From IMG/VR virus record IMGVR_UViG_3300031134_000639: DNA of 64,000 nt; one strand, given 5' to 3'. The notes under the pieces are model-generated. The model had not been told where the DNA came from. It saw only the letters and a program-made list of their open reading frames with translations, and did no database searches. The translations under genes and the position numbers were made by a program. This DNA is from a virus (Duplodnaviria > Heunggongvirae > Uroviricota > Caudoviricetes). Below are positions 36,004 through 46,054 of the stretch, piece by piece; within the stretch, counting starts at the first letter, position 1, and every line of letters begins with the position of its first letter.

Positions 36004-36969
36004 ATGTGTCGTACTAAGAAGTCGGGTGGGCGTAGATGCCCTCAACACACGGATCCTGTAAAACATGCCGCATATAATGCTCGTAGGCGAGAACTGTACG
36101 CCGAAAAGAAAGACTCTACAAAAGTTGAGTCTGAAGAATCAATAGTTATAGTAGACCATGATGATTCCGTAGACTATGGCTTCCTCCCATTAGACAAACC
36201 TCGTAAACCGTATAAGTTCTCCTCCAAGCTCGGTAAAACCTTTGCCAAAGATGCTAATGAGTTTGCTAAAGCAATTCAACCTGACTTTGATGTCGAACGT
36301 TGGAGACTCAGAAACATCTACCACGAAAACATTGCAACAGATGACCCAATCTACAATGAAGGTAGATTCGCTTTCCTTGAGTACACAGCGTCCAATTACG
36401 CTCTCATTGGTGTACGTTTGAACGGTAGAAACTTGAGTTCAAAAAGACATGACAATTTCAAGTTGACTAAAGACCAAGAAAATGAGCTTGACCGTAAGAT
36501 TGAGACACTTGATGAGCTTTTTACTAGAATAAGGCAGCCTTCGGAACCACGAACGCTGTATCGTGGCATGCAAGTGCCTGACACCGTAGAGCAAGAGAAC
36601 GTTGACAGCTGGCTAGAGAGTAAGTTCCCTGTAGGTGGTATTGTCTCGCAGAAGAATTATATGTCAACAAGTTTGAACCCTAAGATAGCAGCAGGTTTTT
36701 CCTACAGTGACCATAGTGACCCAAGAAAAGTAGCTCGTGCAGTCATTTTTGAGATAAGAACAACTGAGGGTGCTCCTCTGGGCCATGGAACATCCTCCTA
36801 CAAAGATATTGAAGCGGAAGTCCTCCTTCCACGCGACTTAAAACTGAAAGTTGTCAAACGAGAGACAAGAGCCTCACACACCATTGGATCTTTTTTGAAC
36901 CGAAAAAACCAAGTCAGCATCTCTACAGTAATTCAGTTAGTTGACGTAACAAATGAAGGAAAAATTTAA
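36004..36969 (+). CDS. ADP-ribosyltransferase paralog ART-1 (R-S-ExE) with Cys-knuckle/Arg-rich leader
   Basis: ORF track. MCRTKKSGGRRCPQHTDPVKHAAYNARRRELYA; LYRGMQV; NYMSTSLNP; IEAEVLLPR. Confidence 0.8.
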   Translation: MCRTKKSGGRRCPQHTDPVKHAAYNARRRELYAEKKDSTKVESEESIVIVDHDDSVDYGFLPLDKPRKPYKFSSKLGKTFAKDANEFAKAIQPDFDVERWRLRNIYHENIATDDPIYNEGRFAFLEYTASNYALIGVRLNGRNLSSKRHDNFKLTKDQENELDRKIETLDELFTRIRQPSEPRTLYRGMQVPDTVEQENVDSWLESKFPVGGIVSQKNYMSTSLNPKIAAGFSYSDHSDPRKVARAVIFEIRTTEGAPLGHGTSSYKDIEAEVLLPRDLKLKVVKRETRASHTIGSFLNRKNQVSISTVIQLVDVTNEGKI

Positions 36970-37856
36970 TGTGCCGCAGCAAAGAATTAGGCGGCAGGCG
37001 CTGTCCATCTCATACAGACCCAGCAAAACAGTCAGTCTATAATGCTCGCCGCCGCGAACTATATGCACAGCGTAAGCAGGCCCACAACATATCGTTTTTG
37101 AATTACAACACCGCCAAGCCATGGCTAAACGAAGACGATGATGCATACAAAACGTTTGTAGAAGAGGCTGATGCGTTTGCACGCAAGGTGAATCCCAACA
37201 TTAATACAACTCAATGGGATGATGATGAAATGATTTATATGGAACCAGTAACTGACGAGCAGGATGCTCTTATTCAATACAGCGGCGATGGCTATGAAAA
37301 TATCAATCAGTACCTTCGTGCCGGACAACCTAAAACTGATGTAGAACAAACTTTCAAGGTCAAGTTTGACGAATATCGCTCTGCGGCAGAAAACGCCAAT
37401 TTAGTAAAAAATATTGATTCAGCGTTGCTCAAAGCAATACCATCAGAAAAACCACGAGTACTTTATCGCTCTATTCGTGTGCCTCGCGGTGTACCATCTA
37501 GCCAGGCCTCACAATGGCTTAGAGAAAACTTCTCAGTAGGATCTGTCGTCAGCAACCCTGGTTACATGTCAGTTTCTTTGAACGCAGGGCTAGCCAACAG
37601 TATCTTTGGTGAAAGTAGTACGCAACAAACGGCAATCACCATGGAAATCTTAAGTAAAAAAGGCGCTCCGCTTGGAGCAGGCATGTCCAAAACAGCTTAC
37701 AGCGAAACTGAACTTCTTTTACCGCGTGACGTTAAACTAAAAGTGGTCTCTTTAGAAGAAGACGTAGATTACACAGTGATGTTCCGAAACAAAGAGAAAA
37801 CAACCAAACGCACTGTTATACGTCTCATAGACGAAAATGATGAAGGAGAAAACTGA
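36969..37856 (+). CDS. ADP-ribosyltransferase paralog ART-2
   Basis: ORF track. TAATG overlap with ART-1. MCRSKELGGRRCPSHTDP; LYRSIRV; GYMSVSLNA; SETELLLPR. Confidence 0.8.
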   Translation: MCRSKELGGRRCPSHTDPAKQSVYNARRRELYAQRKQAHNISFLNYNTAKPWLNEDDDAYKTFVEEADAFARKVNPNINTTQWDDDEMIYMEPVTDEQDALIQYSGDGYENINQYLRAGQPKTDVEQTFKVKFDEYRSAAENANLVKNIDSALLKAIPSEKPRVLYRSIRVPRGVPSSQASQWLRENFSVGSVVSNPGYMSVSLNAGLANSIFGESSTQQTAITMEILSKKGAPLGAGMSKTAYSETELLLPRDVKLKVVSLEEDVDYTVMFRNKEKTTKRTVIRLIDENDEGEN

Positions 37857-38731
37857 TGTGCAGACCCAAAGAGAATGGTGGGAGACGCTGTCCTCAACAC
37901 ACTGACCCTGTAAAACACGCCGCATATAACGCACGTCGTAGAGAACTGTACGCTGCTTCCAAAAAAGCGGACTCATCTTCTGCTCTGACTAGTCTTTTCC
38001 CTGAGATGGGTGTTCCCATACAACCACTAAATGAAAACGTACGTCTTGCGTTCATTGCTGATGCTCGTAAGCTGACTAAAGCGCTCCTGCCGGATTTTGA
38101 TGAAAACACCTGGGCGCTTACAGAGAGTGTTATAACCTCAGACCATCCTAAATATGCTAACCCTGCTAGCCATGAAAGCTTGCGTTACTATACAGATATT
38201 GGCTACACTCATCTTAGAGCTAATCTAGAAGGCAGAGGTTATGCTGCTCCTGAAACACTTGAATGGGAACATCGTGTCATAGACTCTATTGACAAAGCTT
38301 TCGAACAGGCATCCCCACCTGATGAGCCTCGCCTACTATATCGTGGTATGAGAATTCCTAGTGAACATGAGCCTGACCAGTTCATTAATGAGAACTTCCC
38401 TGTTGGAGGTGTTGTCAGCCAGAAGTCTTATATGTCAACAAGTCTGCTACCTTCGGTATCTAAGTCATTCGGGGATGGATTTGGGCACGGTGAAGAGCGA
38501 ATTGCTAGGTCAGTAGTTTTCCAGATTGTTAGCAAACAGGGTATAGCTCTGGGAAAAGGAACCTCCGAAATGTCGGACAGGGAAAAGGAAGTTCTGATGC
38601 CTCGTAATGCGAGATTCAAAGTAGTTAGCGTAGATAAAGGCGTTGACTTCAGCTATACTCCGTTTGGTTACCCTAATGAGAAACTGAAGCGCACGTTAAT
38701 TCGTTTGGTTGATGCGTCAGACGAAGAATAG
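37856..38731 (+). CDS. ADP-ribosyltransferase paralog ART-3
   Basis: ORF track. TGATG overlap. MCRPKENGGRRCPQHTDP; LYRGMRI; SYMSTSLLP; REKEVLMPR. Closest to ART-4. Confidence 0.8.
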   Translation: MCRPKENGGRRCPQHTDPVKHAAYNARRRELYAASKKADSSSALTSLFPEMGVPIQPLNENVRLAFIADARKLTKALLPDFDENTWALTESVITSDHPKYANPASHESLRYYTDIGYTHLRANLEGRGYAAPETLEWEHRVIDSIDKAFEQASPPDEPRLLYRGMRIPSEHEPDQFINENFPVGGVVSQKSYMSTSLLPSVSKSFGDGFGHGEERIARSVVFQIVSKQGIALGKGTSEMSDREKEVLMPRNARFKVVSVDKGVDFSYTPFGYPNEKLKRTLIRLVDASDEE

Positions 38732-38764
38732 ACTAAGTTCACTCCTATCAGGTTTAAGACAAAA

Positions 38765-38775
38765 CCGATAGATAT
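38765..38775 (+). promoter_or_regulatory. CCGATAGATAT motif variant, 32 nt before the ART-4 start
   Basis: 9 of 11 identical to the exact motif. Confidence 0.5.
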
Positions 38776-45135: not shown

Positions 45136-45153
45136 TTTGGATGGGCAGTAGCC

Positions 45154-45164
45154 CCGATAGTAAT
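45154..45164 (+). promoter_or_regulatory. CCGATAGTAAT motif (exact), 26 nt before the ART-11 start
   Basis: Exact 11-mer. Confidence 0.6.
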
Positions 45165-45190
45165 AACTGGAATTAGACTTTGGAGTTAAC

Positions 45191-46054
45191 ATGTGCCGTA
45201 CTGCTGGAAGACGCTGCCCGTCTTATACCGACCCTAAGCTTATAGCAGAACGCAATGCTCGTCGCAGGGCCGCATACAAAGTATCGCACAAAACCAAAGC
45301 TGAACCTAAAAGGCTTGACCCGACAACGTTGTTTAAACCTTTTGACGTTTACCGTGAAGAAATAATTCCGGAAACACCCGAATACAGAGAGTACATTCAA
45401 GCCGGAAAGGACTTCTCAAACAGCATCACTCCGCAGGAGTCAGACGCTGTATACGGCTATACTGACATGGACTACAGCATAATCCGAGACTACCTTAATG
45501 GGTACGAAATGGAGTCATCAACAGTCGTGCCTTTAACTCTTCAGGAATCACGTCAACAGGAAGTTGACAACACTATCGAAACAATAGACTCAGCCTTGAA
45601 GAAAGCCGATCCACCAGCGTCTCCTAGGACTCTTTACAGAGGCATGATGATACCCATGAAAGTAAAACCAGCAGACATGAAAGCATGGGTTGAAGATAAT
45701 TTCCCTATTGGCGGTGTGATAAGCCAAAAAAGTTATATGTCAACAAGTTTAAGCACGCAGAAAGCACTTGGCTTCGCTGGTTCATATGATGCTTCCCCTA
45801 GAAGTGTTCTACTAGAAATTGTTTCTTCTTCCGGCGCTGTACTCAACAGCCAGACTTCTTCATACGGCGAGATGGAGAGAGAGGTCTTGCTTCCCAGAGG
45901 TAAACGATTCCAGGTTGTGTCAGTAACCACTGATGCAGAGATTAACTATAAGATGTATGCGCACAAAAAGCACTACGAACGAACAACAACTGGAATAAAA
46001 ATTATTCAGCTGATTGATTTGGATGAACTAGAGGGAGATTCTGCTGAAGCATAA
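45191..46054 (+). CDS. ADP-ribosyltransferase paralog ART-11 (short-knuckle subtype)
   Basis: ORF track. MCRTAGRRCPSYTDP; LYRGMMI; SYMSTSLST; MEREVLLPR. Followed by a 24-bp-stem hairpin. Confidence 0.8.
   Translation: MCRTAGRRCPSYTDPKLIAERNARRRAAYKVSHKTKAEPKRLDPTTLFKPFDVYREEIIPETPEYREYIQAGKDFSNSITPQESDAVYGYTDMDYSIIRDYLNGYEMESSTVVPLTLQESRQQEVDNTIETIDSALKKADPPASPRTLYRGMMIPMKVKPADMKAWVEDNFPIGGVISQKSYMSTSLSTQKALGFAGSYDASPRSVLLEIVSSSGAVLNSQTSSYGEMEREVLLPRGKRFQVVSVTTDAEINYKMYAHKKHYERTTTGIKIIQLIDLDELEGDSAEA

Follow-up and report, generated by a model that had tools for sequence, protein, structure and literature searches.

Tandem arrays of leader-bearing ADP-ribosyltransferase paralogues on a probable giant phage-like element of Actinomycetota

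The ART array and its gene products

We analysed a 64,000-nucleotide (nt) stretch of DNA (IMG/VR record IMGVR_UViG_3300031134_000639), hereafter the window, whose coordinates are used unless another locus is named, and which carries a tandem array of genes for ADP-ribosyltransferases (ARTs) with a common N-terminal leader. Twelve leader-bearing ARTs of the family PF03496 (ADPrib_exo_Tox) are encoded there, eleven in tandem on the + strand at 36004-46054 and a twelfth at 48324-49181, and the products of all twelve genes begin MCR...GGRRCP.H. The original prediction had placed the twelve at 36100-46054; twelve do exist, but only eleven lie in that interval, which clips the first 96 nt of ART-1.

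The run starts with ART-1 (36004..36969, 321 amino acids (aa); PF03496 E=1.6e-11, PHROG Alt-like 5.5e-13), in which the leader (aa 1-33), a middle segment (34-122) and the R-S-ExE core are followed by the tail VTNEGKI. It continues on the same strand, PF03496 E-values standing last in the brackets, with ART-2 (36969..37856, 295 aa, 2.1e-15), ART-3 (37856..38731, 291 aa), its partner in a young tandem duplication ART-4 (38808..39698, 296 aa from the ATG at 38808, with a PF03496 match), ART-5 (39780..40634, 284 aa, 2e-08), ART-6 (40634..41584, 316 aa, 1.7e-09), ART-7 (41584..42450, 288 aa, 1.3e-15), ART-8 (42450..43283, 277 aa, 4e-07), ART-9 (43286..44203, 305 aa, 1.7e-13), ART-10 (44203..45135, 310 aa, 2.8e-08) and ART-11 (45191..46054, 287 aa, 4.4e-19), which closes the run. 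A full-length radA gene (46896-48311) splits ART-12 (48324..49181, +, 285 aa, 9.1e-13) from the others. Start-to-start spacing is 836-988 bp, in line with the conserved 5' ends some 0.85-0.95 kb apart that had been predicted.

By every sequence and fold test run, the twelve proteins are members of the R-S-E ART family (Alt/VIP2/C2-C3 clade). All twelve score 30-69 bits against PF03496, whose curated cut-off is 23.4, and the best PHROG is 'Alt-like RNA polymerase ADP-ribosyltransferase'. A profile built from the twelve matches SpvB, VahC, Vis, Certhrax, Vip2, HopU1 and C3 and, weakly, the Tre1 chains 6drh/6dre. Foldseek returned Certhrax, Vis, C2-I, iota Ia, CDTa and C3 with probability 1.0 (Certhrax, Vis, C2-I and iota Ia for ART-1), and Plx2A is a further fold match. 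Because R187, S221, E270 and E272 are invariant in the twelve, as is an S-x-S/T motif, all copies look catalytically competent, and the Arg-to-ExE distance, 77-83 aa, is the interquartile range among 116 relatives. From the ExE motif alone, the predicted reaction is NAD-dependent transfer of ADP-ribose to arginine.

Upstream, the block opens with a gene for a leader-bearing non-ART protein of 247 aa, coiled-coil-like (MCRNRPGPRCTDHS..., 34009..34752, +), which matches a profile of the leaders at E=5.7e-11 (P0059) and gave no match in Pfam and PHROG scans. Directly behind it lies a gene for an ADP-ribosylglycohydrolase (ARH, DraG-like; 34766..35902, +; PF03747 E=3.7e-43), which is kept in all related loci and is the sole candidate eraser for the array.

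The layout of the run is that of predicted operons. Stop and start codons overlap or adjoin at seven of the ten tandem junctions, the other spacers measuring 55-81 nt. The exact 11-mer CCGATAGTAAT occurs five times in the window (25898, 35964, 39740, 45154 and 61747), always on the + strand and upstream of gene starts, a count reached in none of 100 shuffles. Each of the four longer spacers has it, once as the variant CCGATAGATAT, 27-33 nt before the ATG: at 35964..35974 (+), 30 nt 5' of ART-1; at 38765..38775 (+; the variant), 33 nt 5' of ART-4; at 39740..39750 (+), 30 nt 5' of ART-5; and at 45154..45164 (+), 27 nt 5' of ART-11. The motif or its variant keeps this distance at every site bar 61747, and it precedes ART sub-operons, a leader-like CCA enzyme and a glutaredoxin region in the window as well as ARTs in three further loci (L013, L016 and L018). 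It is thus a candidate for an element-specific promoter; a sigma-70 promoter scan stayed at chance level. A long near-perfect hairpin lies between the ARH gene and ART-1 (35912..35957, +), and a hairpin resembling an intrinsic terminator, with a 20-bp stem, marks the array end (46087..46134, +). Taken together, the overlap of stop and start codons, the 11-mer in front and the terminator at the end mark the tandem ARTs as genes predicted to be co-transcribed.

An acidic, D/E-rich tail of 5-11 aa ends ten of the twelve proteins, and ART-10 (ending IDA) and ART-12 (ending VVDAD) stop at the core, as had been noticed earlier. The tail codons (GAA, GGA, GAG, GAT) form a purine-rich run 6-12 nt before the next ATG, with Shine-Dalgarno-like runs (GAAGGAG, GGGGAGGA, GAGGA) at 36940-36970, 37830-37856, 40610-40634 and similar junctions. 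Conservation of the tail may therefore partly reflect dual coding with the ribosome-binding site of a translationally coupled next gene. Overlap with such a site is not the whole explanation, since ART-3, ART-4 and ART-11 have the tail and no overlapping downstream gene.

Regional divergence, copy age and turnover of the array

Divergence along the genes is strongly non-uniform, as predicted. In the 12-protein alignment (A1), mean pairwise identity in sliding windows of 15 columns is 0.63-0.74 over the leader (columns 1-35) and drops to 0.01-0.19 over columns 36-135; it then peaks at 0.43 in the YT..GY..LN helix, 0.52 in the catalytic Arg block, 0.72 in SQKSYMSTS and 0.55-0.64 around ExE. The proposed fixed leader is borne out, but the supposedly fixed core is itself a mosaic, its three loops (columns 156-185, 251-280 and 326-347) being as low as the middle (0.00-0.08). 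Residues just before ExE differ in every paralogue, at the position that the ARTT loop occupies in C3-like toxins. The middle does vary in both length (46-89 aa) and sequence between copies; ART-3 and ART-4, 67% identical overall and 57% there, are the sole close pair of this array, in agreement with the claim that only their middles are clearly similar.

The synonymous divergence between paralogues (pS) is ~0.78 in every region, leader included, and non-synonymous divergence (pN) is 0.22 in the leader, 0.60 in the middle, 0.32-0.44 in the core blocks and 0.56-0.65 in the core loops. Since synonymous sites are saturated everywhere, the copies are ancient and the leader is held by selection at the protein level. 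At the DNA level, leaders are 47-83% identical between copies, with exact runs of 5-23 nt; gene conversion was considered as the cause of leader conservation and ruled out by the leader pS of 0.78 and by exact runs of at most 23 nt.

A different picture of the middle emerges between strains. The window was compared with two related contigs, L004 (96.5-97% nt identity over long BLAST alignments, ~99% outside divergent patches) and L020, which gave ten orthologous ART pairs, 93-99% identical. In the two comparisons, dN/dS was 0.08/0.10 for the leader, 0.13/0.07 for the middle, 0.08/0.11 for the core blocks and 0.11/0.14 for the core loops; the middle had no indels in the ten pairs, and Fisher tests were non-significant. 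In the young tandem duplicates ART-3/4 and B05/B06 (the latter from another array), identity was 57%/74% in the middle vs 67%/70% in the core, and at intermediate divergence (74% and 52% overall) the middle evolved no faster than the core loops. These substitution patterns indicate that the middle is constrained within each orthologue and owes its variety to old functional divergence, not to ongoing diversification. The description of the middle as hypervariable accordingly fails both between strains and in young duplicates, and its proposed role as the specificity determinant shrinks to at most one of several, the core surface loops diverging as fast.

The structure models suggest what the middle consists of. 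In AlphaFold2 (AF2) models of ART-1 (pLDDT 78.5) and ART-7 (pLDDT 86), a low-confidence Cys knuckle (residues 1-17) and a basic helix (18-37) are followed by 10-18 disordered residues (39-48 in ART-7). The middle contains a near-invariant Phe (F60 of ART-1, F57 of ART-7), which in the ART-7 model sits on a short helix; the ART domain then runs from ~residue 75, and a confidently modelled helix at 75-90 already belongs to it though inside the middle. On these models, the middle is paralogue-specific, part linker and part least conserved helix of the catalytic domain. It could instead be a passive spacer that only links two constrained modules and has diverged through low constraint in very old duplicates. 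The disorder right after the leader helix would fit such a spacer, as would the widely varying linker length in the family at large (the catalytic Arg lies anywhere from ~residue 130 to 378) and the long Lys-rich, low-complexity linkers of relatives on an unrelated contig described below. We consider this explanation improbable, however, given that the middle is as constrained as the core within each orthologue and contains both the near-invariant Phe and the confidently modelled ART-domain helix.

Array content differs between related contigs. Two of them (L003 and L005) are identical to the window, but ART-2 is missing from four others: L004 (163 kb), L006 (19 kb), L020 (511 kb) and L021 (24 kb). 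The difference amounts to exactly one cassette of 887 bp. Its crossover zone of ~24 nt (ATGAAGGnnAAAnnTnATGTGC) comprises acidic-tail codons, the stop and the next ATG and is common to the ART-1/2 and ART-2/3 boundaries; at the L004 junction, a 1-nt difference lengthens ART-1 to 325 aa. ART-2 does not look like a recent duplicate, because its identity to the other paralogues does not exceed 42%, and from the sequences the polymorphism is either a loss or a gain through exchange with another lineage. A second kind of event is seen at ART-12, which has 74-86% nt identity to its L004 counterpart in a ~99% background, with sharp limits at the gene ends (48300-49250) and a pS of 0.65 for a pN of 0.13, and which appears to have been replaced whole by a divergent allele. 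The other 10 of the 11 tandem cassettes keep their order in every strain seen. Related genomes thus do not carry an identical set, as the original prediction had anticipated. Its mechanism, unequal recombination through the conserved 5' ends, has one direct example in ART-2, but leader DNA homology is weak and there is no sign of gene conversion, so that such exchange is possible but rare.

These data also bear on the broader model from which those claims came, in which the middle would be a hypervariable specificity module of the polymorphic-toxin or receptor-binding type and the array would be actively reshuffled through its 5' ends. The variation of the middle between paralogues agrees with it, and so do the cassette lost or gained exactly at a gene boundary, the replaced allele and, at the level of the superfamily, the fusion of the leader to different toxin domains. 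We nevertheless rate it as the least probable of the readings weighed here: between strains the middle has a dN/dS of 0.07-0.13 and no indels, its divergence in young duplicates does not exceed that of the core, the core loops match or surpass it in variability, no immunity genes are interleaved, the short exact runs of the leaders and their saturated synonymous sites rule out concerted evolution, and the order of the cassettes is stable.

The window holds only one of several arrays. On the same 624,949-bp contig (ENA ERZ27247443, k141_624373), two further arrays comprise seven leader-ARTs (L016, 4230-11038) and eleven (L018, 6316-16435), several of the array-A members in these loci lacking the acidic tail. 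Together with the twelve of the window and a leaderless ART at 18778-19686, the contig therefore encodes at least 31 ARTs, and a 20-kb stretch of the 511-kb strain (L013) encodes 16. Paralogues are mostly 35-50% identical and close pairs are found only among neighbours, as expected if new copies arise slowly by tandem duplication. The strain comparisons thus reveal how such an array evolves: as far as the sequenced strains indicate, change is slow and takes the form of replaced alleles and of rare events in which a whole cassette is lost or gained at a gene boundary, and hypermutation of the middle plays no part.

A second one-cassette difference lies outside the ARTs: a pair of paralogues (51716-53640, -; 306 and 295 aa, 54% identical, no Pfam/PHROG match) is reduced by ~815 bp (52680-53495) in both L004 and L006, where 190 bp overlap at the junction. 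An unrelated large contig from the same sample (L014; ENA k141_1824502, 727 kb, 35% GC) encodes leader-ARTs of 490-512 aa with the long linkers mentioned above, an ARH beside them, a leaderless ART and a faint Arr-like match.

The leader and the nature of the replicon

The leader is a basic segment of 33-36 aa with the consensus M-C-R-x(1-8)-G-R-R-C-P-x-H...N-A-R-R-R-x-x-Y and two invariant Cys. A Sec or Tat signal at the ART N-terminus was dismissed on inspection, this part being highly charged. The leader has no counterpart in Pfam or PHROGs. An exhaustive HMMER search of 1.84 billion cluster representatives (E<=1e-3), made with a profile of 13 window leaders, retrieved 181 of them, nearly all matches beginning at residue 1. 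Among 126 leader proteins scanned, 101 carried PF03496 and two ART-PolyVal, with one each for Zeta toxin, DUF3990 and PolyA_pol. The PolyA_pol match is the window's own CCA-adding/poly(A)-polymerase-family enzyme (25939..27411, +), which starts with the leader-like MCQPQSEGGRRCNGH and has the CCGATAGTAAT motif upstream at 25898, so that the leader is not restricted to ARTs.

Among cultured organisms, Gordonia and Prescottella genomes encode a non-ART protein with the leader; the leader is also present on plasmids of Rhodococcus, Dietzia and Paenarthrobacter. The Paenarthrobacter plasmid (49.6 kb) has genes for an SLT transglycosylase and an FtsK/SpoIIIE-domain protein as well. MuF-like minor capsid proteins of Streptomyces and Microbacterium phages have the same C-terminal domain as the Gordonia protein. 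In other searches, the ART alignment, used as a profile against genome contigs, matched the leader alone in two cases (Gordonia and Prescottella), so that the source organism is not among the species representatives; a tblastn search of the phage collection with just the leader gave chance-level matches (E ~7); a word-indexed protein search with the leader alignment found one fragment; and a metagenome scan for the 14-mer AAACCGATAGTAAT gave chance matches in unrelated contigs.

Its fusion to other effector-type enzymes on mobile elements of actinobacteria leads us to infer that the leader serves mobile elements of Actinomycetota as a module for delivery or targeting. Packaging in the phage head and injection as effectors have been described for MuF fusions and polyvalent proteins (PMC9503650). 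The leader, confined to ~180 sequence clusters, is a concrete candidate for a new protein-delivery or targeting signal. A bolder version is tentative: the Cys-containing 33-aa leader may be an undescribed tag for virion packaging and injection, or for co-transfer with DNA, by which a phage-like element of 0.6-0.9 Mb sends at least 30 differently targeted Arg-ADP-ribosyltransferases and a nucleotidyltransferase into its host at infection, which would be the largest known ART effector arsenal, checked by one shared ADP-ribosylhydrolase.

Short Cys motifs of other types (C-x6-C-x2-H, C-x6-C, C-x11-C-x-H) start further proteins of these elements, including an HNH protein, an acetyltransferase-like protein and the leaderless thirteenth ART of the window (18778..19686, -; PF03496 9.7e-11), whose N-terminus is C-x6-C-x2-H; others were located at 6591, 7783 and 11610 of L014 and at 18112 of L013. 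These elements may thus carry a wider class of N-terminal Cys knuckles.

What kind of replicon carries the arrays was judged from their surroundings. Two rIIA homologues (L016, 14577-16871; L018, 18634-20841; phrog_612, E=8e-77) have their best matches, among 2,790 phage records, in Streptomyces and Arthrobacter phages, and a DUF2637 protein matches actinophages only. RNA ligase, the CCA enzyme, ThyX, NrdH/NrdI, LigA, NT5C and an aminoacyl-tRNA synthetase are present, Pfam coverage is very low, the density of ORFans is very high, and there are several tandem paralogue families. PDB sequence searches with LigA and ThyX carried no usable taxonomic signal.

Several observations weigh against a phage-like element. 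The ~130 kb examined showed no gene for a capsid, portal or terminase protein; contigs of 0.5-0.9 Mb at 45% GC are among those of the element and its relatives, the largest reaching 884-885 kb, and to our knowledge 885 kb exceeds the size of any known phage. An IMG/VR scan found distant ART domains only, and neither megablast of the array nor tblastn of ART-11 gave a match in the phage collection at E<=1e-5. Type IV pilin-like and prepilin-peptidase-like genes stand next to arrays on related contigs, and the RadA encoded within the ART block is full-length and of cellular type. Huge phages often carry many tRNAs, and tRNA scans of all loci found none. For the leader itself, a simple zinc knuckle is doubtful, as the two Cys alone are invariant and His15 is replaced by Tyr in three copies.

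The DNA might instead come from a small cellular genome, for example that of an ultra-small epibiotic bacterium living on Actinomycetota. Its leader-ARTs would then act as interbacterial effectors that depend on contact, and the ARH would give general immunity by stripping Arg-ADP-ribose from the cell's own proteins, as in Tre1-Tri1. Contig size and GC content, the full-length RadA, LigA, CCA enzyme and synthetase, the pilin-related genes, the missing matches in virus scans, the weak resemblance to Tre1 and the presence of an ARH beside ARTs in two unrelated contigs are all in keeping with such a cell. On the other side stand the actinophage affinity of the rIIA homologues, the very low Pfam coverage with its many tandem ORFan families, the fact that the housekeeping-like genes are a set typical of huge phages, and the leader relatives of cultured organisms, which are plasmid-borne and have a domain in common with MuF capsid proteins; moreover, an Rfam scan was empty, and no ribosomal, rRNA or tRNA gene was found in ~130 kb. 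We therefore regard a cellular origin as rather unlikely, and a giant phage-like element of an actinobacterial host is favoured by about 2:1 over a reduced cellular genome.

Other genes nearby are of both kinds: the window encodes an RNA ligase (13867-14631, -), a HAD_SAK_2 domain of the RNA-repair type (8021-8671, -) and an NrdH-like glutaredoxin with NrdI (61756-62643), and related loci encode a prepilin-peptidase N-terminal fragment (L020, 4197-4508) and three N_methyl pilin-like genes (L013, 2878-3447 and 19009-20063). This set is mixed between virus and cell and does not settle the matter.

Our preferred reading, to which we give a probability of roughly 55%, is that at least three tandem arrays, of which the region is one, together comprise at least 31 genes for ancient, individually conserved arginine-type ART paralogues of the Alt/VIP2/C2-C3 fold, which would serve as host-takeover effectors of a giant phage-like actinobacterial replicon and carry the shared leader as a delivery or targeting tag. 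It builds on the architecture, on the age of the copies, on purifying selection acting on every part within orthologues, on catalytic residues that are intact in all twelve and on signals of co-transcription, each as read from the sequences. Under this reading, each ART copy would ADP-ribosylate its own host protein target during infection or establishment. Which target a copy modifies would depend on its N-terminal segment together with the active-site loops of its core, in which the NAD-binding and catalytic blocks are fixed and the three surface loops and the pre-ExE residues vary from copy to copy. The shared leader would provide virion packaging and injection, or localisation in the host, and the single upstream ADP-ribosylglycohydrolase would reverse or limit the arginine ADP-ribosylation.

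Relation to known systems and other genes of the window

ADP-ribosylation is a central weapon in conflicts between phages and hosts and between bacteria. The ART family and the Alt/Mod-like effector role proposed here are known; the size of the arsenal and the undescribed leader are new. In their probable way of working, the array proteins come closest to Alt, ModA and ModB of phage T4 and to the multi-ART arsenals of phage G and Bodo saltans virus (PMC9503650). With the T4 proteins, they share the ART clan and catalytic triad, an Alt-like best PHROG and an organisation as tandem paralogues on a probably phage-like genome, and modification of several host proteins would be expected (PMC9503650). 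They differ in number (at least 31 copies vs three), in the Cys-containing leader, which the T4 proteins do not have, and in the adjacent ADP-ribosylglycohydrolase. That at least 31 copies are intact and individually conserved would imply many more host targets than are known for T4.

Known phages encode one to about ten transferases, and phage ARTs commonly travel in the virion and are injected (PMC9503650). ART expansions in very large viral genomes have been described in Bacillus phage G (at least 10) and Bodo saltans virus (12) (PMC9503650); here the ARTs are about three times more numerous, lie in three tight co-oriented arrays and have an N-terminal leader common to the array copies. The C2/C3-like toxins (SpvB, VahC, Vis, Certhrax, Vip2, iota Ia, CDTa, C3) share with them the fold, the R, S-T-S and ExE motifs and variation in the loops round the active site, whereas the present ARTs are without a signal peptide, a binding or translocation component or a second ART-like adaptor domain, and their targets are presumably bacterial. 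The array offers a natural panel for working out how substrate choice depends on the N-terminal segment and on the loops of the ART fold.

The pairing of a PF03747 hydrolase with Arg-type ARTs directly beside it recalls DraT-DraG, Tre1-Tri1 and the ART-ARG pairs of Aeromonas phages, such pairs being known from some phages (PMC9503650), and it recurs in the unrelated contig L014. Here, however, one hydrolase stands beside 11-12 transferases rather than one beside each, nothing points to immunity of the binding type, and no ARH was seen in the fetched flanks of the L016 and L018 arrays.

The layout had also been likened to that of polymorphic toxins, and part of this likeness holds: across the superfamily, the leader is a constant N-terminal module in front of ART, ART-PolyVal, Zeta toxin, DUF3990, nucleotidyltransferase and a MuF-associated C-terminal domain. 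Within the array the arrangement is reversed, the conserved part being the C-terminal toxin domain and the variable part internal. All array C-termini are the same domain, and the variation lies between old paralogues, not between strain alleles. Polymorphic toxins have a cognate immunity gene downstream (PMC3482391), and none follows each ART here, where stops and starts overlap or adjoin at 7 of 10 junctions and the rest are 55-81 nt; nor are modules swapped from strain to strain, the only events being those of whole genes (ART-2 and ART-12), with the middle under purifying selection. The scanned ARTs have no T5SS, T6SS, T7SS, MuF, PAAR, Rhs or secretion domain, and the likeness to the MuF-toxin fusions of temperate phages (PMC9503650) consists of the one leader protein that shares its C-terminal domain with MuF proteins. 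With neither immunity genes, nor variable C-terminal tips within the array, nor secretion-linked domains, the ARTs do not fit the definition of a polymorphic toxin system (PMC3482391).

Elsewhere in the window, about ten paralogous genes for proteins of ~200 aa with a DGGLTLPDG-like motif lie at 310-13157, with mutual identities of 22-54%; the one member scanned against Pfam and PHROG gave no match. Smaller paralogue families lie at 4102/4692 and at 57991-60667. Finally, a ThyX homologue (50765-51532, -) matches PDB entry 4p5a at E=2e-66, against E ~1e-33 or weaker for the other ThyX chains listed.

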